Assembly: GCA_965248355.1 (NCBI GenBank)
Contig: OZ252098.1
Coordinates: 384,001 to 448,000 of the forward strand
Length of the DNA: 64,000 bases
From: Candidatus Latescibacterota bacterium
GTDB lineage: Bacteria > Latescibacterota > UBA2968 > UBA8231
Direction: 5' to 3'
Made by a program: the position numbers and the translations under genes. Of this stretch, positions 15,442 through 25,238 are shown one piece after another. Position 1 is the first letter of the stretch. Every line of letters starts with the position of its first letter. Below the pieces are notes generated by a model. The model did no database searches, was not told where the DNA came from, and saw only the letters and a program-made list of their open reading frames with translations.

Positions 15442-15744
15442 ATGGTCCTGGCGCGGGTCAAGGGGCAGGCGGTGGCCTCGGCCAAGGTCGCCGATCTCGA
15501 GGGCCGGAGACTGCTGCTCGTGGAGTTGCTCACCGTCGACGGCGACGAGGTCGTCCCCACCCGCAGGCACATGGTCTGCGTCGACTCCGTGGGCGCCGGC
15601 CAGGGCGAGGTCGTCCTTCTCGTGCAGGGCAGCTCGGCCCGTCAGAGTCCGGGGATGGGGGACCTTCCCGTGGACGCCGTTCTGGTGGGCATCGTCCAGT
15701 CGGTCAGCGCCCGGGGTCATCGACTCGTACAGGCCGCCGCATGA
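15442..15744 (+). CDS. BMC vertex protein (BMC-P, EutN/CcmL family) 1
   Basis: MVLARVKGQAVASAK...VCVDSVGAGQGEVVLLVQGSSAR...PVDAVLVGIV. Confidence 0.92.
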   Translation: MVLARVKGQAVASAKVADLEGRRLLLVELLTVDGDEVVPTRRHMVCVDSVGAGQGEVVLLVQGSSARQSPGMGDLPVDAVLVGIVQSVSARGHRLVQAAA

Positions 15745-15998
15745 GAATGGCACGGGTCATCGGCAACGTCGTCGCCGGCGAACACCATCCCGCCCTCGAT
15801 CACCGCACGATCCTGGTCGTCGACGATGGCGGGGGCACCGCCCTGCAGCTGGCGGTCGACGCCGTGGGCGCGGGCCCTGGCTGCCGGGTCCTGGTCGCGG
15901 ATTCGGGCGCCGCCGGCCGCGAGGTCACGGGTCTCGAGTTCCCGCCCGTGCGCAGCGTCGTCGTGGGTATCGTCGACGGCCCCGGCGAGGCGCCGTGA
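15741..15998 (+). CDS. BMC vertex protein (BMC-P, EutN/CcmL family) 2
   Basis: MRMARVIGNVVA...LAVDAVGAGPG..VLV..SG.A.R...PVRSVVVGIVD. Confidence 0.9.
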   Translation: MRMARVIGNVVAGEHHPALDHRTILVVDDGGGTALQLAVDAVGAGPGCRVLVADSGAAGREVTGLEFPPVRSVVVGIVDGPGEAP

Positions 15999-16267
15999 AG
16001 CTGGCCCGCGTTCTCGGTCAGGTCGTTCTGTCGCCGAAGATCGAGCCGTACCGGGACAGGAGCCTGCACCTGATTCAGGACGTGAACCGCGAGCTGCAGG
16101 GCGTGGGCGATCCCGAGGTGGCCGTCACCTGGCAGGCCATGGCCGAGGGAGACCTGGTCGTCGTCGAGGTCGCCCGGGAGGCGTGCAACGCCTTCGACAA
16201 CACGATCCCGGCCGACGCCGTCATCATCGGCCGCGCCGACCGGGTTCACATCGATACCGCTTCCTGA
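15995..16267 (+). CDS. BMC vertex protein (BMC-P, EutN/CcmL family) 3, divergent
   Basis: MKLARVLGQVVLSPK...GDLVVVEVAREA...PADAVIIGRAD; lacks the usual DxxGAG motif. Confidence 0.85.
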   Translation: MKLARVLGQVVLSPKIEPYRDRSLHLIQDVNRELQGVGDPEVAVTWQAMAEGDLVVVEVAREACNAFDNTIPADAVIIGRADRVHIDTAS

Positions 16268-16285: not shown

Positions 16286-16843
16286 ATGACAGAGGCTCTG
16301 GGCATGTTGGAGACGGTGGGGCTCACGGGCGCGATCGCCGGCGGAGATGCGATTTCGAAGGCGGCGAAGGTGGAGCTCCTGGGCTGGGACCGGGTGGGCT
16401 CGGGGATGGCGACCGTGTTCTGCGGCGGCGACGTGGCGGCGGTGAAGTCGGCGGTCGACGCCGGTGCGCAGGCGGCGTCGAAGGTGGGAGAGGTGCGCGC
16501 CGTGCACGTGATTCCGCGGCCCCATGCCGACCTGGGGCCGATCCTGCCTTCGAACGGGGGGGGGGAGGTGAGCGGGGTCCGCGCCCTGGGGATGGTGGAG
16601 ACCCGCGGCTCGACGGGGGTCATCGAGGCCGCGGACGCCATGGAGAAGGCGGCGGAGGTGGAGGTGGTCCGCGTCCAGGAGATCGGGGGCGGCTACATCA
16701 CGGTGCTGGTCACCGGGGACGTGGGCAGCGTGCAGTCGGCGGTCACGGCGGGAGCGGAGGCGGCGGAGCGCGTGGGCGAACTGCTCGCACGCCACGTCAT
16801 CGCCCGTCCGTCGGAGGCCGTGCTCTCATTGTATCTGGGATGA
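16286..16843 (+). CDS. BMC shell protein with two tandem Pfam00936-type domains
   Basis: Two ALGM(L/V)ET.G...D.xxKAA.V...GDV..V.SAV.AG...HVI(P/A)RP units. Confidence 0.92.
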
Positions 16844-16856
16844 AAGGGAGAAGGTC

Positions 16857-17123
16857 ATGAGTGCCTTGGGCATGGTGGAGACGCGGGGTCTGGCGGCGGC
16901 TGTGGAGGCCCTGGACGCGATGCTGAAGACGGCGGACGTGAGGTACACGGGCCAGAAGCGTGTGGGCGGGGGCCTGGTGTCGGTCCTGGTGGAGGGGGAC
17001 GTGGCCTCGGTGAAGTCGGCGGTCGACGCCGGCGCCCAGGCGGCCCAGGGCGTGGGGGAGCTGCGCAGCGTGCACGTGATCCCCCGGCCGATCGACAAGC
17101 TCAAGAGCGCCGCCGGCATCTGA
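16857..17123 (+). CDS. BMC-H hexamer shell protein (PduA/EutM-like)
   Basis: [26 protein letters not shown]...[23 protein letters not shown]...HVIPRP. Confidence 0.96.
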
Positions 17124-17133
17124 CGGGACCGTC

Positions 17134-18558
17134 GTGGCCAAGGTGAGCGAAGACGGGGTCCGCCGCATCGTCGAGGAGGTTGTGGAGCAGGCCCTCGGTT
17201 CAGGGGCCGGATCCGGGGCCCCGGCTGCGGGCGGGTCCGGGGCGGGTCTGTTCCGTTCCGCCGACGAGGCCGTGGCCGCAGCCGGCCGGGCGCAGAGGTC
17301 CCTCGTCGAGCAGAGCCTGGAGCTGAGGCGCAAGATCGTCGAGGCGATCCGGCAGACGACCCGCGACCACGCCGAGACGTTCTCGCGCATGGCCCTCGAA
17401 GAGACGGGCATGGGCCGCTTCGAGGACAAGGTGCAGAAGCACCATCTGGCGGCCGATCTGACCCCCGGCGTCGAGGACCTCGAGTCGGTCTCGTGGACCG
17501 GGGACCACGGCCTGACCGTGGAGGAGATGGCGCCGTATGGCGTCATCTGCGCCGTCACGCCCTCCACCCACCCCGTACCGACCCTGGTGAACAACGCCAT
17601 CGGCATCATCGCCGCGGGCAACTCCGTCGTCTTCAATCCTCACCCCGGCGCCAAGGGAGTCTCCGCCCACTCGGTGCAGCTGCTGAACGACGCCATCGTC
17701 GCCGCCGGCGGGCCCGGGAACCTGATCGCCTGCATCGCCGAGCCGACGATCGAGAGCGCCGGCCAACTGTTCAACCACCGGGGGGTCGGGGTCATACTCG
17801 TCACGGGGGGGGCCGCAGTGGCCCGGGCGGCCCTCGCAAGTCCGAAGAAGTCCATCGTCGCCGGACCGGGGAATCCCCCGGTCGTCGTCGACGAGACCGC
17901 GGACCTCCGCAAGGCCGCGCGGGACATCGTCGACGGGGCCGCCTTCGACAACAACATCCTGTGCATCGGCGAGAAGCAGTGCTTCGTGGTCGACGCCGTG
18001 GCCGACGACCTCAAGGCGGAGATGGTCGCCTACAGCGCGGTCGAGCTCGACCCGGGTCAGGTCGACGCCCTGACCCGCGCGGTCCTGCCCCGGGGCGGGG
18101 ACGGCGAGCATCACCCGAGCCGCGACTTCATCGGCCGCAACGCCAACGTCCTGGGCCGGAGCATCGGCCTGGACCTCGACGACCGGCTGCGGCTGCTGAT
18201 CGGCGAGACCGGCGCCGACCATCCCTTCGTCACGGTGGAGCAGATGATGACCTTCCTGCCCATCGTCCGGGTGCGCGACGTGAGCGAGGGCATCCGCGCC
18301 GCCGTCGAGTCGGAGCACGGCTTCCGCCACACGGCGGTCATCCATTCCCGGAACGTGGAGAACATGCACAACATGGCGCGCGCCGTGGACACCACCGTGT
18401 TCGTCAAGAACGGACCTTCCTACGCCGGTCTCGGCGTCGGCGGCGAAGGGTTCTCCACGTACTCCATCGCCGGCCCCACCGGCGAAGGGCTGACCACGGC
18501 CCGCACTTTTACCCGCCGGCGTCGCTGCGCCCTGGTGGACTACTTCCGCATCACCTGA
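17134..18558 (+). CDS. CoA-acylating aldehyde dehydrogenase (EutE/PduP-type) with N-terminal encapsulation peptide
   Basis: EETGMG, PYGVI..VTPSTHP, VTGG, AGPGNPP, FDNNILCIGEK (catalytic Cys), EHGFRHTA, GPTGEG. The N-terminal helix SEDGVRRIVEEVVEQAL is followed by a Gly/Ala linker. Confidence 0.93.
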   Translation: MAKVSEDGVRRIVEEVVEQALGSGAGSGAPAAGGSGAGLFRSADEAVAAAGRAQRSLVEQSLELRRKIVEAIRQTTRDHAETFSRMALEETGMGRFEDKVQKHHLAADLTPGVEDLESVSWTGDHGLTVEEMAPYGVICAVTPSTHPVPTLVNNAIGIIAAGNSVVFNPHPGAKGVSAHSVQLLNDAIVAAGGPGNLIACIAEPTIESAGQLFNHRGVGVILVTGGAAVARAALASPKKSIVAGPGNPPVVVDETADLRKAARDIVDGAAFDNNILCIGEKQCFVVDAVADDLKAEMVAYSAVELDPGQVDALTRAVLPRGGDGEHHPSRDFIGRNANVLGRSIGLDLDDRLRLLIGETGADHPFVTVEQMMTFLPIVRVRDVSEGIRAAVESEHGFRHTAVIHSRNVENMHNMARAVDTTVFVKNGPSYAGLGVGGEGFSTYSIAGPTGEGLTTARTFTRRRRCALVDYFRIT

Positions 18559-18561
18559 CCC

Positions 18562-18879
18562 ATGCTCCTCGCCCAGGTGAAGGGTCAAGTCGTGGCCAGC
18601 GCCAAGCTCGACAACCTGTCGGGCCGCAAGCTGCTGCTCGCCGAGGTCCTCACCGTTCGTCCCGACGGGCTGCACGCCACCGGCCGTGAGGTGGTCTGCG
18701 TCGACGCCGTGAGCGCCGGCAGGGGCGACATCGTCCTCGTCGTCATGGGCAGCTCGGCGCGCACGGCCCCGGAGCTGGGCACGGTCCCCACCGACGCCGC
18801 CATCGTCGCCATCCTCGAGGGTCTGACCGCCGACGGCCGGAGGCTCGATCTGGGTCGCGTCGTCGAAGGGGCCGGGTGA
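18562..18879 (+). CDS. BMC vertex protein (BMC-P, EutN/CcmL family) 4
   Basis: MLLAQVKGQVVASAK...VCVDAVSAGRGDIVLVVMGSSAR...TDAAIVAIL; close paralog of 15442-15744. Confidence 0.92.
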   Translation: MLLAQVKGQVVASAKLDNLSGRKLLLAEVLTVRPDGLHATGREVVCVDAVSAGRGDIVLVVMGSSARTAPELGTVPTDAAIVAILEGLTADGRRLDLGRVVEGAG

Positions 18880-19586
18880 AGGGCGAAGTGGTCGCCGCCG
18901 TCGACAGGGCCCGGGTGGAGGCGCTGGTCCGCCAGGCCCTGAAGCACCGACTCCCGAATCACCCGGTGGACGCCAGGCCTTCGAGTCCGGCGCCCCGCCT
19001 GGTCGCCAACATCTCGGCCAGGCACTGTCACCTCGACGCGGGATCCCTGGAGACGCTCTTCGGCAAGGGCGCGGAGCTGAAGGTGCTCAAACCTCTCTAC
19101 CAGGCCGGCGCCTTCGCCGCCGAAGAGACGGTGACCATCTTCGGACCGCGCAAGCAGATGATCTCCAACCTGCGCGTCCTCGGACCGCTGCGCGAGGCCT
19201 GCCAGGTGGAGCTCGCCTTCTCCGACGCGCGCTTTCTCGGCATCGACGCCCCGGTGCGGCTCAGCGGACACATCGACGGTTCCCCCGGATGCTACCTGGT
19301 GGGGCCCGCCGGCGGCCAGGAGATGGGCCAGGGCGTGATCCGCGCGGCCCGCCACGTGCACATGAACCCCGAGGAGGCGGCGTTCTACGGCGTCGCCGGC
19401 GGCGACCGAATGCGCCTGGTCGTCCGCAGCGATCAGCCGGGAGCCCTCGAGGACGTGATCGTGCGAGTCGATGCCGGCTCGAAGCTCGAGGTCCACGTCG
19501 ATACCGACGAGGGTAACGCCGTGGATCTCGTCAGCGCCGCAAAGGTCGTTCTCGAGAAGCAACAGCCGGGCGAGGGCAGGCCATGA
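18876..19586 (+). CDS. pduL: PduL-type phosphate acyltransferase with N-terminal encapsulation peptide
   Basis: SARHCHL, LYQAGAFAA.E.V, RVLGPLR..QVE, RHVHM, HVDTDEGNA. N-terminal helix VDRARVEALVRQALKHRL. Confidence 0.92.
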   Translation: MKGEVVAAVDRARVEALVRQALKHRLPNHPVDARPSSPAPRLVANISARHCHLDAGSLETLFGKGAELKVLKPLYQAGAFAAEETVTIFGPRKQMISNLRVLGPLREACQVELAFSDARFLGIDAPVRLSGHIDGSPGCYLVGPAGGQEMGQGVIRAARHVHMNPEEAAFYGVAGGDRMRLVVRSDQPGALEDVIVRVDAGSKLEVHVDTDEGNAVDLVSAAKVVLEKQQPGEGRP

Positions 19587-19668
19587 GCGCCTTGGGCATG
19601 GTGGAGACGCGGGGCCTGGCGGCCGCGGTAGAGGCGACGTGGCCTCGGTGAAGTCGGCGGGCATCTGA
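19583..19668 (+). pseudogene. Internally deleted remnant of a second BMC-H gene
   Basis: These 86 nt match the start ([17 protein letters not shown]), middle (GDVASVKSA) and end (GI-stop plus downstream CGGG) of 16857-17123, with two deletions and a frameshift. Confidence 0.85.
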
Positions 19669-19671
19669 CGG

Positions 19672-20151
19672 GTGACGGGCCGACTGCACATCTCCGAGGC
19701 CGTTGTCACCGAGGAGGTCCTGCGCGCCCGTCACGCCGGACAGGAGGAGGTATCGGTGAACGCCGGGGCGGTGGTGACGCCCACCGGGTGGGACTACCTG
19801 CGGCGCCACCGGATGCGGCTGACCCGGGGCCAGGCGGCAGAGCCGGGCGGTTCCCAGCCGGCGTCCGGCGAGGTCCCGGAGGTGCTGCCGCCGGGCGCCG
19901 AGGGCGGGCTGCTGAGCCGCGGACGCTGCGACCACCCCGACCGCCCGTACGGCTGCAAGACCGAGGAATTCGGCTCCGGATTCGTGGAGCCTTCCTCCTG
20001 CTCCCGGTGCGCGGTGTACCAGGCGGAGCTGGCGGGCCGGCCGAGTTGCGGCTGTGGCGGCTGCAACCGCCGGGTCGCGGCCGAGGAGGAGGAGGAGGCC
20101 CTGGTGCAGCGTCTCACCGACGAGATCATGCGCAGGCTGAAGGAGGAGTGA
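19672..20151 (+). CDS. BMC-associated hypothetical protein: small N-terminal domain, 7-Cys region, C-terminal encapsulation peptide
   Basis: VVTEEVL...AVVTPTGWDYLR; C-x8-C...CxxC...CGCGGC; C-terminus EEALVQRLTDEIMRRLKEE. Confidence 0.75.
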   Translation: MTGRLHISEAVVTEEVLRARHAGQEEVSVNAGAVVTPTGWDYLRRHRMRLTRGQAAEPGGSQPASGEVPEVLPPGAEGGLLSRGRCDHPDRPYGCKTEEFGSGFVEPSSCSRCAVYQAELAGRPSCGCGGCNRRVAAEEEEEALVQRLTDEIMRRLKEE

Positions 20152-20156
20152 GGGGC

Positions 20157-20735
20157 GTGTCCGAGGCCATCGGGATGATCGAGGTGGAGGGAGTGGCGGG
20201 CATCGTCGTCGGCGCCGACGCGGCCTGCAAGGCGGCCCAGGTCGAGCTCATGGGCTGGGAGTCGATCGGCGGTTTCACGACCCTCTTCCTGCGCGGCCCT
20301 CTCGGTGACGTGAGCGCCGCCCTTCGCGAAGGCGAAGCGGCGGCCGGGACCGTGACCGGCCACGTGGTCAGCGCCTGCCTGGATCAGCCGCAGCCCGAGT
20401 GCGCCGGCTTCGTCGGTTGTCCCCGGTCGCCGGGCGAGGTGGAGGCGGCCGCCCTGGGCCTGATCGAGACCCGGGGGTACGGCGTCCACGTGGAGGTGAA
20501 CGACGCCATGGTCAAGGCCGCCGGCGTGGCGGTGGCCAACGTGCTCACCGTGCACAACCGCGTCGTGTGCAGCCTGATCACCGGTCCCGTGGACGCCGTG
20601 GAGCAGGCCATCGGCCGCGGCCGGGAGCGGTTGGCCGGCGACGAGTGGTTCATGGCCTCGGCCGTGATCCCACAGCCCCTCCCGTCGGTGCTGAGCGCCT
20701 TCGTCCTCTTCCGTCCCACCGCCGGGACGAGCTGA
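20157..20735 (+). CDS. Divergent BMC shell protein with two tandem domains
   Basis: AIGMIEVEG...DAACKAAQV and ALGLIETRG...DAMVKAAGV...GPVDAVEQAI. GTG 20157 follows GGAGGAG. Confidence 0.88.
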   Translation: MSEAIGMIEVEGVAGIVVGADAACKAAQVELMGWESIGGFTTLFLRGPLGDVSAALREGEAAAGTVTGHVVSACLDQPQPECAGFVGCPRSPGEVEAAALGLIETRGYGVHVEVNDAMVKAAGVAVANVLTVHNRVVCSLITGPVDAVEQAIGRGRERLAGDEWFMASAVIPQPLPSVLSAFVLFRPTAGTS

Positions 20736-21886
20736 TGGAGCGCGCCCTGGGCATCCTGGAGGTCAGGGGCATGACGGCCCTGGCGGCGGCCCTCGACTCG
20801 ATGCACAAGGCGGCCTCCGTGCGGCTGGCCGGACGCCACGGGGTCGGCTCCGGCTGGTTGACGGCGATCGTCGAGGGCGCCACGGCGGACGCGCGCACCG
20901 CCCTCGACGCGGGTCGCGAGGCGGCCGCCGCCCACGGCGACGTGATCACCGCCGTCGTCGTTCCGGGAGCCGAGCCCGCGGCCCTCGAGCCGATGCCCCA
21001 CTCCGGCGTCTCCCTCGAGGCCGGGACCGGTCTCCAGGCCCTCGGCCTTCTCGAGACCCGGGGCCTCGTCCCCCTGGCCGCCGGCGCCGACGCCATGGTC
21101 AAGGCGGCCGACGTGGAGCTCCACGGCTGGTCCTTCATCGGCGGCGCCTTGATGCACGCCGCGGTCACCGGCTCCGTGGGGGCCGTGGAGGCCGCCGTGC
21201 AGGCCGGGGAGCGGTCCGCCCGGAGGGCGGGCGAGTTCCATGGCGCCCTGGTGCTTCCCCAACCGGAGCCCCAGGTGGGAGTCCTGCTGCCCTCCGGGCC
21301 GGCGGGAACTCCGCCGCCCGCCGGCGCCCTCGGGATCGTCGAGGCCACGGGGTACGTGGCCTCGGTGGCCGCCGGCGACGGCATGGTGAAGGGAGCACGC
21401 GTCGACCTGGCGCGGCTGACCATCGGCAGCGGGGGCCGGGTGGCGGCCGTCGCCACCGGAGCCCTGGACGAAGTCGGCGCCGCCGTCGCGGAGGGGGCCC
21501 GCCGGGTCGAGGAGACGGCGGAGCTCGAGGGGCAGGTGGTGATCAGCGGTCCCGACCCCCGAGTCCTGGCCTGCTTCGCCCAGGCCGCCGGGTCCCCCGG
21601 CGAGCGCCCTCTCGCGGGCCGGGCCATGGGCCTGGTGGAGACGCGCACCACCATCGGTCTCGCAAAGGCCCTCGACGAGATGCTCAAGAACGCCGACGTG
21701 ACCTACGAGGGCCGGTACAAGGCGGGCTACTTCCTCACGGCCTGTGTCGTGCGCGGAGAGACGGGGGCCGTCGACACCGCTCTCGACGTGGCGCGGCGCA
21801 CCGCCGGTCGCTACGGGGAGCTGGTGGCCGCCCGCGCCATCCCCTTACCCTATGACGAGATGGAGGTGCGCCTGCCTCACGGGTAG
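20735..21886 (+). CDS. BMC shell protein with four tandem domains (383 aa)
   Basis: Four units begin ALGILEVRG, ALGLLETRG, ALGIVEATG and AMGLVETRT, each with D-x-M-x-K. TGATG overlap with the upstream gene. Confidence 0.9.
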   Translation: MERALGILEVRGMTALAAALDSMHKAASVRLAGRHGVGSGWLTAIVEGATADARTALDAGREAAAAHGDVITAVVVPGAEPAALEPMPHSGVSLEAGTGLQALGLLETRGLVPLAAGADAMVKAADVELHGWSFIGGALMHAAVTGSVGAVEAAVQAGERSARRAGEFHGALVLPQPEPQVGVLLPSGPAGTPPPAGALGIVEATGYVASVAAGDGMVKGARVDLARLTIGSGGRVAAVATGALDEVGAAVAEGARRVEETAELEGQVVISGPDPRVLACFAQAAGSPGERPLAGRAMGLVETRTTIGLAKALDEMLKNADVTYEGRYKAGYFLTACVVRGETGAVDTALDVARRTAGRYGELVAARAIPLPYDEMEVRLPHG

Positions 21887-23098
21887 GTGTCCCAGGACAT
21901 GGTCCGTATCGACGATCCCGTAGTCACCGCCCAACTGCTCGAGGGCCGTCTCGGGCAGGACGACCGGCAGGTCGAGATCTCACCGCGTTCGACGGTCACC
22001 CCCTCCGCCAAGGATCTCCTGCGGGCCCGGGGGATCGAAGTCGTGCCGCCGTCGCAGGGCGCGTCCAGCCCCGCGCTCCCGCCCGCCGGCGTGCCCGCGC
22101 CTCCGGGAGGAACCGAGCGGAGCCGCCGGTTCAGCGGCATCTTCACGCCCAACATCGTGATCTACGACGAGCAGGGGCGGATCGCCTACGGCGAGATGGA
22201 GCGCTACATCGCGTGGCTCATCGACGCCGGCATCCACGGACTCTACCCGAACGGCAGCACGGGGGAGTTCGTGCGCCTCTCCAGCGAGGAACGGCGCGAC
22301 GTGGTGCGGCTCATCGCCGAGGTCAACCAGGGCCGGGTGCCGATCCTGGCCGGCGCCAGCGAGGCCAACATCCGCGACGTGCTGCAGATGGCCGAGTACT
22401 ACGCCGACCTCGGCGCCGACGCCATCTCCCTCGTGCCGCCCTACTACTACAAGATCTCCGACACGAGCCTGTACGAGTACTTCGCCGAGATCGCCCGCCA
22501 CTCCCCCCTCGACATCCTGCTCTACAACATCCCGCAGTTCACCCAGGAGCTGCCCCTGGACACGATGGAGCAGCTCCTCGCCTACGAACGCATCTTCGGC
22601 ACCAAGGATTCCAGCCGCGACCTGCCGCGCATCGTCAACACCATGGATCGCCTGCGCCGGCACCGGCCCGACTACGTCGTGCTCAACGGCTGCGAGGAGA
22701 TCCTGCTGCCGTCGATCGTCATGGGGGCCAACGGCGGCACCATCGCCACCTCCGGCATCGTTCCCGAGATCATCGTCGAGCTCTACGACCGCACCGTCGC
22801 CGGGGATCTCCAGCGGGCGAAGGAGCTTCAGTACCGTCTCCTGCCCCTGATCAACCTCATGCTGCTGGGGGTGAATTTCCCCGAGGGATTCAAGACCGGC
22901 GTGGCCGTGCGCGGCTTCGAGGTCGGTCCGCCGCGGACCGTGCTGAGCGCCGAGGAGCGCGACTACCTGCTGCGCCTGGAGTCCGAGATCGGCTGCGTCC
23001 TTGGCGACATGGGTTATTCCGTCCGCGGTGCCCGGGGTTGCCCGGTGACCCATCTGCCGCCCATCGTGGCCGGCCGGAAGCCCCCGCCCGGGGGCTGA
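21887..23098 (+). CDS. DHDPS/N-acetylneuraminate lyase family class I aldolase with extra N-terminal domain
   Basis: YPNGSTGEF, PPYYY, LYNIPQFT, GTKDSS (Schiff-base Lys); about 80-aa N-terminal extension. Confidence 0.88.
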   Translation: MSQDMVRIDDPVVTAQLLEGRLGQDDRQVEISPRSTVTPSAKDLLRARGIEVVPPSQGASSPALPPAGVPAPPGGTERSRRFSGIFTPNIVIYDEQGRIAYGEMERYIAWLIDAGIHGLYPNGSTGEFVRLSSEERRDVVRLIAEVNQGRVPILAGASEANIRDVLQMAEYYADLGADAISLVPPYYYKISDTSLYEYFAEIARHSPLDILLYNIPQFTQELPLDTMEQLLAYERIFGTKDSSRDLPRIVNTMDRLRRHRPDYVVLNGCEEILLPSIVMGANGGTIATSGIVPEIIVELYDRTVAGDLQRAKELQYRLLPLINLMLLGVNFPEGFKTGVAVRGFEVGPPRTVLSAEERDYLLRLESEIGCVLGDMGYSVRGARGCPVTHLPPIVAGRKPPPGG

Positions 23099-23120
23099 GG
23101 CCGCCCGGCAGGCCTCGATC

Positions 23121-24221
23121 GTGAGCGCCGGGGACCGCGCCCGGGTCCTGGTGGCCGGCGCCGGCATCGTCGGACGTTCCGTCGCCTACTACCTCTCCCG
23201 GTCGGGTGTCTCCGTGGTAGTCGCCGACCGGGATCCGTCGCCTTCCGCCACCACCCGGGCCTCCCTCGGCGTCCTCACCCGGCCCACCGGAGGGGAGGAT
23301 CCGTTCTCCTCCTTCCACCGGGACGGCCATGCCCTGCACGAGGAGCTGAGCGTCCGGCTGCGCGAGGAGACCGGCCGTGACGCGGGCTGGCGGCCCCTCG
23401 GAGGACTGGACCTGGCCTTCGGCGAGGAGGAGGCCGAGGGGCTACGCTCCCTCGTCGATGAGAGCCGGTCTCGTGGAGTCCGGGCCGAGTGGCTCGAGCC
23501 GCGCCAGGTGCGGGAGGCGGAGCCGGCCCTGTCGGAGGCCGTGTGCGGGGCTTCCTTCTACCCCCAGGACAGCCGCGTCGACCCGCCGAGCCTGGCGTCG
23601 GTGCTGCAACGGGCGGCCGAGGCCCGGGGCGCCGAGTTCCGCTTCCAGGCCACGGTGGCGGCTTTGCGTACCACGTCCGGAGGAGTGGAGTGCGATCTGC
23701 GCGACGGCGCCGGATCCCGGCGAGCCGTCTTCGATGCGGCCGTGATCGCCGCCGGATCCTGGTCGGGGGAGATCGCCGGTCCGGCGGCCGGGAGGCTGCA
23801 GGTGCGCCCGGTACGTGGCCAGAGCGGTCTGTTCTCCGGCGACCCCGTACACCACCTGGTGCGCTGGTCCGGGATGCACGTGCTGCCGGTCCCAGGGGGC
23901 CTCCTCGCAGGGGGAACGGTGGAGGAGGCCGGGTTCAGCGCCGGGACCACGCCAGCGGCGGGGCGGAAGCTGACCGCCTGGTGCGAGCGCGTCCTGGCCC
24001 GCAAGCCGATCCTGCGCCGGCAGCGCGCCGGGCTGCGTCCCAAGCCGCGGCAGGGCCGCCCCCTCGTCGGCCCCCTGCCCGGTGCCGCGAACCTGTGGGC
24101 GGCCACCGGGCACTACAGGAACGGCGTGCTGTTGGCTCCGATCACGGGCCAGGTCCTGGCCCGGTGGCTGACAGGGGGCGAGCCCGGCCGGGACATGTCC
24201 CGCTTTGCCGTCGATCGTTGA
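23121..24221 (+). CDS. FAD-dependent oxidoreductase (glycine oxidase ThiO/DadA-like)
   Basis: GAGIVG, AAGSWS, PVRGQ, AGLRP, ATGHYRNGVLLAPITG. Confidence 0.85.
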   Translation: MSAGDRARVLVAGAGIVGRSVAYYLSRSGVSVVVADRDPSPSATTRASLGVLTRPTGGEDPFSSFHRDGHALHEELSVRLREETGRDAGWRPLGGLDLAFGEEEAEGLRSLVDESRSRGVRAEWLEPRQVREAEPALSEAVCGASFYPQDSRVDPPSLASVLQRAAEARGAEFRFQATVAALRTTSGGVECDLRDGAGSRRAVFDAAVIAAGSWSGEIAGPAAGRLQVRPVRGQSGLFSGDPVHHLVRWSGMHVLPVPGGLLAGGTVEEAGFSAGTTPAAGRKLTAWCERVLARKPILRRQRAGLRPKPRQGRPLVGPLPGAANLWAATGHYRNGVLLAPITGQVLARWLTGGEPGRDMSRFAVDR

Positions 24222-24296
24222 CGGCCGTCGAGGGGCCTCCGTACTCTCTACGGCCTCTGCCGACCGTCGCCCTTACCCAACCGACCGGAGCCCTGC

Positions 24297-25238
24297 ATGC
24301 CCTACAGCACCGAAGATCTGCTCGACGCCCTGGACACGGTCATCTCGATCCCCATCGTCCCCTTCCGCGCAGGCCGGATCGACTACGAAGCCCACGGAAA
24401 GAACATCGACTACCTCCTGGGCACGAAGGCGCTGGAGGGGGACCGCGAGCGCGTGATCTCCATCGCCGGCACGAGCCTCGTGCACCATATCGATACGGAC
24501 GAGCAGCTGAACCTGATGGAGTACACGGCGGCCCGGGTGGCGGGCAGGGGCATCTTCATCTCCGGCGTGGCACCCAACCCCCTGGCCGACGCCGAGCGGC
24601 TGATCGCGGCCCAGTGCCGCCTGGCGAATCCGCCCGACGCCTTTCTGCTCATGCCGCTGACGGGGGTGGCCGATCCGCAGGGCATCTACCACGGGTACAT
24701 GGCCCTGGCGGAGAGGCTCGGAGGGGACCACGGCGCTCGCTTCCTCTACTACCTGCGACAGTCCAACCAGGCGCCGGCCGCCGTGCGGCTGGTGAACGAT
24801 TCGCCCCACTTTCTCGGGGTCAAGATCGGCACCCGCCCCGAGGACGTGAAGCCCATGGTGGAGGGCGTCCGGAAGGGCGCCGGCATCGTCATCTGGGGGA
24901 TCGGCGACCGCAGCACGGGACCGGCCCGGGAGGGCGCCAGAGGCCACACCTCGGGGATCAACGTGGTCTTCGCCAAGGCCTCCGACGAGATCAACAACGC
25001 CCAGCGCCGCGGAGACTACGAGCGCGCCGGGCAGGTCGAGGAGGAGCTGACGGCCCTGGAGGAGATCCGCTTCCGCGACGATCGCCGCTACAACTACTCC
25101 GCTGTGGTCGAGGCCATGCACCTGAGCGGGTTCGACGATATCGAGGGCGGCGAGGGCGGTCCCTTCAACCCGCGGGTGCCCTCCGAAGTGGCCGGCGAGG
25201 TGGAGGCCGCCATCCGGCCGATCCTGCACTACCACTGA
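24297..25238 (+). CDS. Divergent DHDPS-family TIM-barrel protein (possible keto-deoxy sugar acid aldolase/dehydratase)
   Basis: IPIVPF..GRIDY, FLYYLR, FLGVKIG, GARGHTSG; the usual GTTGE is replaced by AGTS. Confidence 0.7.
   Translation: MPYSTEDLLDALDTVISIPIVPFRAGRIDYEAHGKNIDYLLGTKALEGDRERVISIAGTSLVHHIDTDEQLNLMEYTAARVAGRGIFISGVAPNPLADAERLIAAQCRLANPPDAFLLMPLTGVADPQGIYHGYMALAERLGGDHGARFLYYLRQSNQAPAAVRLVNDSPHFLGVKIGTRPEDVKPMVEGVRKGAGIVIWGIGDRSTGPAREGARGHTSGINVVFAKASDEINNAQRRGDYERAGQVEEELTALEEIRFRDDRRYNYSAVVEAMHLSGFDDIEGGEGGPFNPRVPSEVAGEVEAAIRPILHYH

Follow-up and report, generated by a model that had tools for sequence, protein, structure and literature searches.

Bacterial microcompartment (BMC) shells are described as having three kinds of part: hexamers, whose chains have one domain each, trimers, whose chains have two, and pentamers. 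Such tiles are constrained by their symmetry, with pore residues repeated six- or three-fold, and the same holds for their cargo-binding sites. Here we describe two adjacent genes of a Candidatus Latescibacterota bacterium (assembly GCA_965248355.1), which lie in a 64,000-nucleotide stretch of contig OZ252098.1 that was analysed as a whole and is referred to as the window (positions 384,001 to 448,000 of the forward strand; the genome coordinate is the window coordinate plus 384000). One gene encodes a two-domain BMC shell protein, called T in the following, and the other a four-domain BMC shell protein, called Q. Gene comparisons and structure models make it probable, in our judgement, that T and Q combine 1:1 into an asymmetric 4+2 pseudohexamer.

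Among solved structures, the best match to the models of both proteins over two domains is PDB 6NER, a synthetic tandem BMC-H fusion in a Haliangium ochraceum shell, which is also the best PDB match by sequence (E 1.8e-35). This fusion, which reportedly assembles as a homotrimer, is engineered and carries two identical domains, whereas T and Q are natural and distribute six non-identical domains over two chains. Assembly of one tile from the products of two or more neighbouring genes is known from the mixed BMC-H hexamers of CcmK3 and CcmK4. Their subunits have a single domain and their stoichiometry is variable, whereas covalent fusion in T and Q would fix both the composition and the order of the six positions.

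The natural proteins of the class BMC-T(s), such as PduT, CcmO and HO BMC-T1, resemble T and Q in that non-permuted PF00936 domains are fused in one chain and form a pseudohexagonal tile, and T and each half of Q align with CcmO-type models over two domains. According to the accessible part of the 2021 BMC catalogue, BMC-T(s) tiles consist of three identical chains with two domains each and have three-fold symmetry (Sutter 2021). The arrangement proposed here differs from them in joining a four-domain chain to a different two-domain chain, which would leave no symmetry. In the same part of the catalogue, six classes of shell protein are distinguished, with at most two domains per chain, and MUF2 is mentioned simply as a metabolosome type whose function is unknown (Sutter 2021). 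The portions available to us of Sutter 2021, Axen 2014 and the 2015 Latescibacteria paper make no mention of four-domain BMC proteins, and we found no natural three-, four- or six-domain BMC shell protein in the literature, with the reservation that the supplementary trees and locus diagrams of the catalogue may show the gene. A shell architecture of a four-domain and a two-domain chain appears to be undescribed so far.

Six BMC domains in two adjacent genes

T is encoded on the forward strand at 20157..20735 (192 aa, GTG start) and Q, on the same strand, at 20735..21886 (383 aa). PF00936 matches the translation of T in two stretches (E 6e-33, 113 bits) and that of Q in four (E 5e-61, 203 bits), the Pfam cut-off being 24.5 bits, and in a whole-genome domain scan each of the six domains lies above this cut-off singly. 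The scan places them, all on the forward strand, at 20166-20369 (T-D1), 20451-20678 (T-D2), 20744-20965 (Q-D1), 21038-21265 (Q-D2), 21326-21553 (Q-D3) and 21623-21847 (Q-D4). All six cover the Pfam profile in order from position 1 to positions 71-75 and are therefore not circularly permuted, so that the four consecutive non-permuted domains claimed for 20735-21886 by the original prediction, which had been made from the sequence without database searches, are borne out. T thus has the two non-permuted domains per chain of a BMC-T(s) protein, while Q, with four, falls outside that class, and neither has the circularly permuted domains of BMC-T(dp). The linker between D2 and D3 of Q is about as long as those between D1 and D2 and between D3 and D4, at roughly 20 residues each. 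At the junction of the genes, the stop codon of T (TGA, 20733-20735) and the start codon of Q (ATG, 20735-20737) have one base in common; this TGATG overlap (20733..20737, forward strand), likewise part of the prediction, can be read directly in the sequence.

The six domains are conserved as six separate positions. We aligned 112 orthologues of Q and 121 of T, and computed a quick maximum-likelihood domain tree of 105 rows, which comprised the six positions from 17 of the 112 Q and 17 of the 121 T sequences together with three local BMC-T and BMC-H domains. Each position formed one group in this tree, with five label changes for six groups, which is the minimum possible; the deep forks were not resolved. 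The pore loops, which had been noted to differ in all six domains of the window (SIGG, TVHN, GVGSG, FIGGA, IGSGG and KAGYF; our translations agree), are each conserved across the family in a form of their own: G-W-E-S-I-G-G-F-T in T-D1, L-T-V-H-N-R-V-V-C in T-D2 with R135 and C138 invariant, G-R-H-G-(I/V)-G-S-G-W in Q-D1, G-W-x-F-I-G-G-A-L in Q-D2, I-G-S-G-G-R in Q-D3 and Y-K-(V/A)-G-Y-F-L-T in Q-D4. Set against the usual G-S-G pore motif in our own alignment, the loops of T-D1, Q-D1, Q-D2 and Q-D3 are small and glycine-rich, whereas T-D2 has a bulky H-N-R and Q-D4 a bulky G-Y-F.

Two further motifs had been singled out at the outset. The edge motif D-x-x-x-K, whose lysine serves tile-to-tile contact in BMC domains, is present in all six domains of the window as predicted (DAACK, DAMVK, DSMHK, DAMVK, DGMVK and DEMLK), and across the orthologues its Asp and Lys are invariant or at least 90% conserved in every domain. 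The claim that all six domains lack the Arg of the C-terminal PRP motif holds for the two proteins of the window, and the other shell proteins of the locus do retain this Arg, as had also been stated; as a trait of the family, the loss is contradicted by the 112 Q orthologues. Arg occupies the site in 75% of sequences in Q-D1, 70% in Q-D3 and 26% in T-D1, Q-D2 and T-D2 mostly have Gln, Q-D4 is variable, and the Gly of the window at the Q-D1 and Q-D3 sites is a minority state (18-22%). To judge from these alignments, the loss of the PRP Arg is a trait of the window's lineage and not of the family. An odd/even pattern of duplication inside Q was considered and rejected, as pairwise identities among the six domains (26-45%) reveal no pairing and the deep forks of the tree give no resolution; an origin from three BMC-T units is a guess.

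A search of 5.8 billion proteins listed 120 matches to Q, with identities down to 44%. Among the matches listed, full-length relatives have 365-393 aa; the genomes that they derive from were assembled from metagenomes and bear the label Gemmatimonadota or Latescibacterota. Q has one full-length cluster in a library clustered at 50% identity, where the other strong matches are pieces. Split forms, in which three two-domain genes would take the place of Q, were rejected as a reading of the shorter matches: the eight that we looked up all come from contigs of 782-11648 bp, and two also fall into clusters that have full-length members. In one locus (L011:3294-4425), the Q match is broken over two frames at about residue 288, owing either to a frameshift or to faulty assembly.

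Three-domain BMC proteins also occur in nature. They have about 283-330 aa, and all ten that we examined (P0250, P0253-P0256, P0258, P0261, P0274, P0297 and P0315) carry three PF00936 stretches. These proteins are rare and metagenomic, with one labelled Dehalococcoidia, and are annotated only as CcmO or BMC domain protein. A 3+3 tile made from them would be another unreported way to fill a hexagon.

T and Q occur together. Among 168 genomes of the window's phylum, scanned at thresholds of E <=1e-50 for Q and E <=1e-30 for T, Q was found in 83 and T in 84. All 83 Q-bearing genomes contain T, and in 81 of them it immediately precedes Q on the same strand. The two non-adjacent cases are partial Q matches in fragmented genomes (G044, 80% complete, 820 contigs; G124, 77%, 660 contigs), and in the sole genome with T but not Q (G096, 85% complete, 980 contigs) a partial T match covering query residues 3-160 sits at a contig end. 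In public species genomes, 12 of the 80 loci that our search kept hold full-length Q orthologues (48-84% identity), each with T directly upstream, while the other 68 are ordinary BMC genes. The likely start of Q is found -8 to +10 nt from the end of the T stop codon in all 19 loci compared (the window and 18 others). Such a junction fits one built for coupled translation and agrees with a 1:1 product. The co-occurrence check that the original prediction had proposed thus found the two genes never independent, and we take it as probable, jointly with the 1:1 tile, that T and Q are obligate partners, never apart where the assembly permits a judgement.

DNA nearly identical to 19600-23100 is present in 20 public sequencing runs from 10 studies; four of the runs are RNA libraries, from two studies. 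Contigs from three of these four RNA runs span the T-Q junction and extend at least 40 letters to either side of it, and a contig of one RNA run crosses the junction of Q with the aldolase gene that follows it. A joint in two RNA runs that skips 20183-21088, with 32 other letters in between, was considered as a splice and rejected, as it comes from a BMC gene of another organism. Parts of this region are without cover in some RNA runs, from which nothing is concluded. Of the four RNA libraries, two carry the label sponge metagenome, a hint that the habitat may be associated with sponges.

A predicted two-chain ring and its alternatives

AlphaFold2 yielded confident single-chain models of both proteins. 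The model of Q, from the 112-row alignment, has a mean predicted local distance difference test score (pLDDT) of 93.1 and a predicted template modelling score (pTM) of 0.91, and that of T, from the 121-row alignment, reaches 93.7 and 0.91. Residues 197-383 of Q superpose on chain X of 6NER with a Z score of 20.5 and a root mean square deviation (rmsd) of 1.3 A (177 of 184 residues), and residues 2-186 of T on chain b with a Z score of 24.6 and an rmsd of 2.0 A (176 of 182 residues). Since both proteins superpose on this tandem BMC-H fusion, adjacent domains in each are placed as ring neighbours.

When Q and T were modelled as a 1:1 complex, three runs gave values of 0.87, 0.88 and 0.87 for the interface score ipSAE, against 0.01 for the best of three controls. 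The runs agreed in at least 91% of contacts, and the partner pLDDT was 91. The complex is modelled as a closed ring in the order T1-T2-Q1-Q2-Q3-Q4, with both ends of Q on T. Contacts of low predicted error link T-D2 (residues 106-120 and 125-137) to Q-D1 (5-9, 35-45 and 71-89) at one end and T-D1 (5-9, 35-42 and 71-85) to Q-D4 (305-335) at the other, including T 107-109 with Q 9, 41 and 43, and T 5, 7 and 42 with Q 306-310; Gly136 in the pore loop of Q-D2 contacts T as well. The predicted interface between the chains contains the invariant M87-P88-H89 from the Q-D1 tail as well as two residues of T where the first T-D2 helix begins, the invariant Y108 and the nearly invariant H111.

On this basis, T and Q would assemble 1:1 into one hexagonal tile with the cyclic order T-D1, T-D2, Q-D1, Q-D2, Q-D3, Q-D4. 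Four Q domains placed as ring neighbours would span 240 degrees, with room left for exactly two more domains between two edges of the same Q chain; T could fill this gap and close the ring. The resulting tile would be without rotational symmetry, and both its pore and its pair of faces would be unique. The pore would be lined by the glycine-rich loops of T-D1, Q-D1, Q-D2 and Q-D3, with the bulky H-N-R of T-D2 and G-Y-F of Q-D4 flanking T-D1. Such a tile may serve as a dedicated gate, as a single-copy docking site, or as both, for cargo encoded by the adjacent genes. We regard the 4+2 tile as the best reading because the gap in Q has room for two domains and T, its sole constant shell companion, has two. 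The 1:1 asymmetric tile of the original prediction hence finds support from comparison, through the co-occurrence in 83 of 83 genomes, and from computation, through a closed-ring model that may reflect likeness to known BMC hexamers.

Several points weigh against the 4+2 tile. BMC hexamers are abundant among solved structures, and the complex model of Q and T may pass on account of its likeness to them, the pair being one that can be laid out in hexamer-like fashion. The controls were unrelated proteins and included no BMC paralogues, so that a specificity of Q for T over ordinary BMC-T or BMC-H proteins lies outside their reach. In calibration, 58 of 80 solved complexes attained the ipSAE mark, as did 2 of 110 mismatched pairs; these counts hold only roughly here because the complex alignments were self-built. 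Conservation is weakly enriched at the interface: of the 48 interface residues of Q, 21 are at least 90% conserved, compared with 27% of residues elsewhere (p 0.026), and of the 45 of T, 20 are, compared with 29% (p 0.07), and BMC interfaces are conserved in any case. Residues in contact between the chains hardly vary, hence they offer no covariation signal. Natural BMC-T structures fit the models of T and Q over one domain only: PduT and HO BMC-T1 reached template modelling scores of 0.40-0.46 in Foldseek with an rmsd of about 15-16 A, and the PduT-derived cage chain 3vcd aligned over one domain of 92 residues (VIA-align); it may be that the second domain is placed on the opposite side in those trimers. 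The RNA-library contigs across T-Q may contain DNA and prove neither transcription nor a single transcript, and the role as gate or dock is one that we infer solely from gene neighbourhood.

A natural six-domain fusion of T and Q, which would have served as a Rosetta stone, was also not found in our searches. No such protein (about 575 aa) was among the 120 relatives listed, within a searched range of 210-671 aa, and no longer fused form turned up among proteins of 672-2000 aa, which by the search's own account is weak evidence. Some genomes have open frames of 792-1007 aa, and in all three loci checked stop codons part T, Q and the aldolase. In related loci T and Q lie in different frames or have a stop between them, and are never fused.

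In one rival explanation, Q acts as a staple: its four domains would be split over two adjoining tiles (D1-D2 here and D3-D4 there, for instance), with T and other two-domain units completing the rings, which would yield covalently cross-linked facets in place of a closed 4+2 tile. Each two-domain unit of Q does align with tandem-domain BMC-T families such as CcmO, which makes Q readable as two BMC-T units; the tiling lysine is found on all six edges, and nothing computed here fixes the path of the D2-D3 linker in an assembled shell. However, the single-chain model is confident in the relative placement of the four domains, as its pTM shows, and the 1:1 model sets both ends of Q on the same T. 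The D2-D3 linker, moreover, has about the length of the other two, and six distinct conserved pore loops suit one fixed pore better than mixed tiles. We consider such a division of Q unlikely. The two proteins might instead assemble separately, with T forming an ordinary BMC-T homotrimer and three copies of Q a body of 12 domains in two rings, stacked or side by side, in line with the 3x4 alternative of the original prediction. T on its own has the architecture of a tandem-domain BMC-T, and three times four domains amount arithmetically to two rings, but this would leave unexplained why T accompanies Q in every Q-bearing genome and why the coupled junction recurs in all 19 loci. Furthermore, the known stacked trimers, as far as the accessible part of the catalogue goes, have permuted domains (Sutter 2021), which those of T and Q are not, and we regard separate assembly as very unlikely.

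A similarly low probability attaches to the ring of Q being closed by an ordinary BMC-T or by two BMC-H proteins, with T forming a separate and merely co-regulated tile. One BMC domain can structurally take the place of another, hexamers that mix paralogues are a topic in the parts of the literature available to us, and the choice of controls for the complex model leaves room for such a partner. Yet 6 of 22 related loci (L005, L006, L007, L081, L082 and L085) contain T, Q and the aldolase as an isolated trio, any further BMC gene being absent over about 8 kb, which leaves T as the one shell partner that invariably accompanies Q; Y108 and H111, T-specific residues located where T is predicted to touch Q, also speak for T. 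Finally, the Q gene could be an assembly or gene-calling error or a decaying fusion, for which the match split over two frames in L011 might be cited. This explanation is rejected and its probability is negligible, as the 383-aa architecture is present in 83 genomes, many of them single-contig, in matches free of internal stops, as well as in more than 100 protein clusters, and the 112-row family alignment has 40 invariant columns.

Possible cargo and role

The proposed 4+2 tile is encoded between two genes whose products have a module in common. Directly 3' of Q, a class I aldolase of the DHDPS/NAL family is encoded on the forward strand at 21899..23098 (PF00701 at residues 82-359); its ATG at 21899 agrees with the starts of orthologues, while the list of open reading frames begins at GTG 21887. 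Upstream of T, separated from it by a gap of 5 nt, a 159-aa protein of no known family is encoded on the same strand at 19672..20151, and it has no Pfam or NCBIfam match. The aldolase has an N-terminal extension of about 80 aa, the first 52 or so of which form a module shared with the N-terminus of the 159-aa protein (21899-22066 and 19672-19839, both forward strand; hhalign probability 99.5%, E 3.4e-23). Thr10, Leu14, Thr34, Pro35 and Asp39 of this module are invariant in 24 sequences. None of the 24 members matches any Pfam family at a meaningful E-value, and the ESM Atlas returned only leads for the module, with scores of 0.84 or below. In the 159-aa protein, eight Cys fall within about 50 residues and the C-terminus consists of an acidic stretch followed by an amphipathic helix, which, from its sequence, looks like an encapsulation peptide. 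The module itself is a possible shell-docking module.

The two flanking genes accompany the pair in most loci. In the window and 22 related loci, the aldolase follows Q in 19 of 23 and the 159-aa protein precedes T in 17 of 23, with at least one of the two in all 23. A full-length aldolase is present in 76 of the 83 Q-bearing genomes of the phylum. In four of the seven without it that we read (G100, G102, G107 and G108), T and Q are followed directly by the FAD oxidoreductase, and the corresponding loci (L087-L090, from G102, G107, G108 and G100, respectively) keep the 159-aa protein, T and Q, while the tagged aldolase is missing.

Where it stands by itself, the trio formed by T, Q and the aldolase resembles a satellite cassette, in which an enzyme comes with its own tile. 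Comparable satellite EUT modules combine EutA/B/C with a EutL-type shell protein, as described in the accessible part of the catalogue (Sutter 2021), and in both cases the enzyme travels with its own shell tile, the trio standing alone in the six loci named above. The cassettes differ in that the T-Q tile would be made of two genes and that its enzyme is a DHDPS-family aldolase, which is missing in 4 of 22 loci while T and Q stay. A single-copy dock for the shared module or a private gate for the acidic substrate of the aldolase would both fit these observations, the candidate cargo being the aldolase, the Cys-rich 159-aa protein, or both.

More tentatively, and as a possibility that we consider rather doubtful in its full extent, T and Q could represent a third design of hexagonal tile, in which a four-domain and a two-domain chain provide six different edges, a symmetry-free pore and a unique face, and which acts as a private gate and as a single-copy dock for cargo bearing the shared module. 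If the 4+2 tile is real, one pore would be formed from six different loops, the six different edges could set the orientation of the tile in its facet, and each tile would offer a single docking site. Such a tile has a bearing on the selection of metabolites and the positioning of cargo by shells, and it would offer synthetic biology a natural template for shell tiles that are addressable and have a single site. The Q family is common enough for study, with members in 83 of 168 genomes of the phylum and nearly identical sequence in RNA libraries of two studies.

The surrounding operon

Pfam and NCBIfam searches place the T-Q pair inside a metabolosome operon, with four PF03319 vertex genes, an acylating aldehyde dehydrogenase and PduL within 5 kb. 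All genes of the operon lie on the forward strand. Three BMC-P genes (about 15442-15744, 15741-15998 and 15995-16267) are followed by an ordinary two-domain BMC-T (16286-16843), a BMC-H (16857-17123), the acylating aldehyde dehydrogenase (17134-18558; NF011927 at 643 bits), the fourth BMC-P (18562-18879) and the phosphotransacylase PduL (18876-19586). Downstream of the aldolase come the FAD oxidoreductase of the DAO/ThiO-like family (23121-24221) and a second, divergent DHDPS-like gene (24297-25238). None of the enzymes in this set (21887-25238), the aldolase included, matches an NCBIfam equivalog at its cut-off. Together, the two DHDPS-like proteins, the ThiO/DAO-like oxidoreductase, the aldehyde dehydrogenase and PduL suggest, on the strength of their family assignments, a route from an amino or sugar acid to an aldehyde. 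The source genome holds 11 BMC domains in total, nine of them at this locus. The other two are single BMC-H genes outside the window, at G000:C1:1075518-1075745 on the reverse strand and at 3004848-3005075 on the forward strand.

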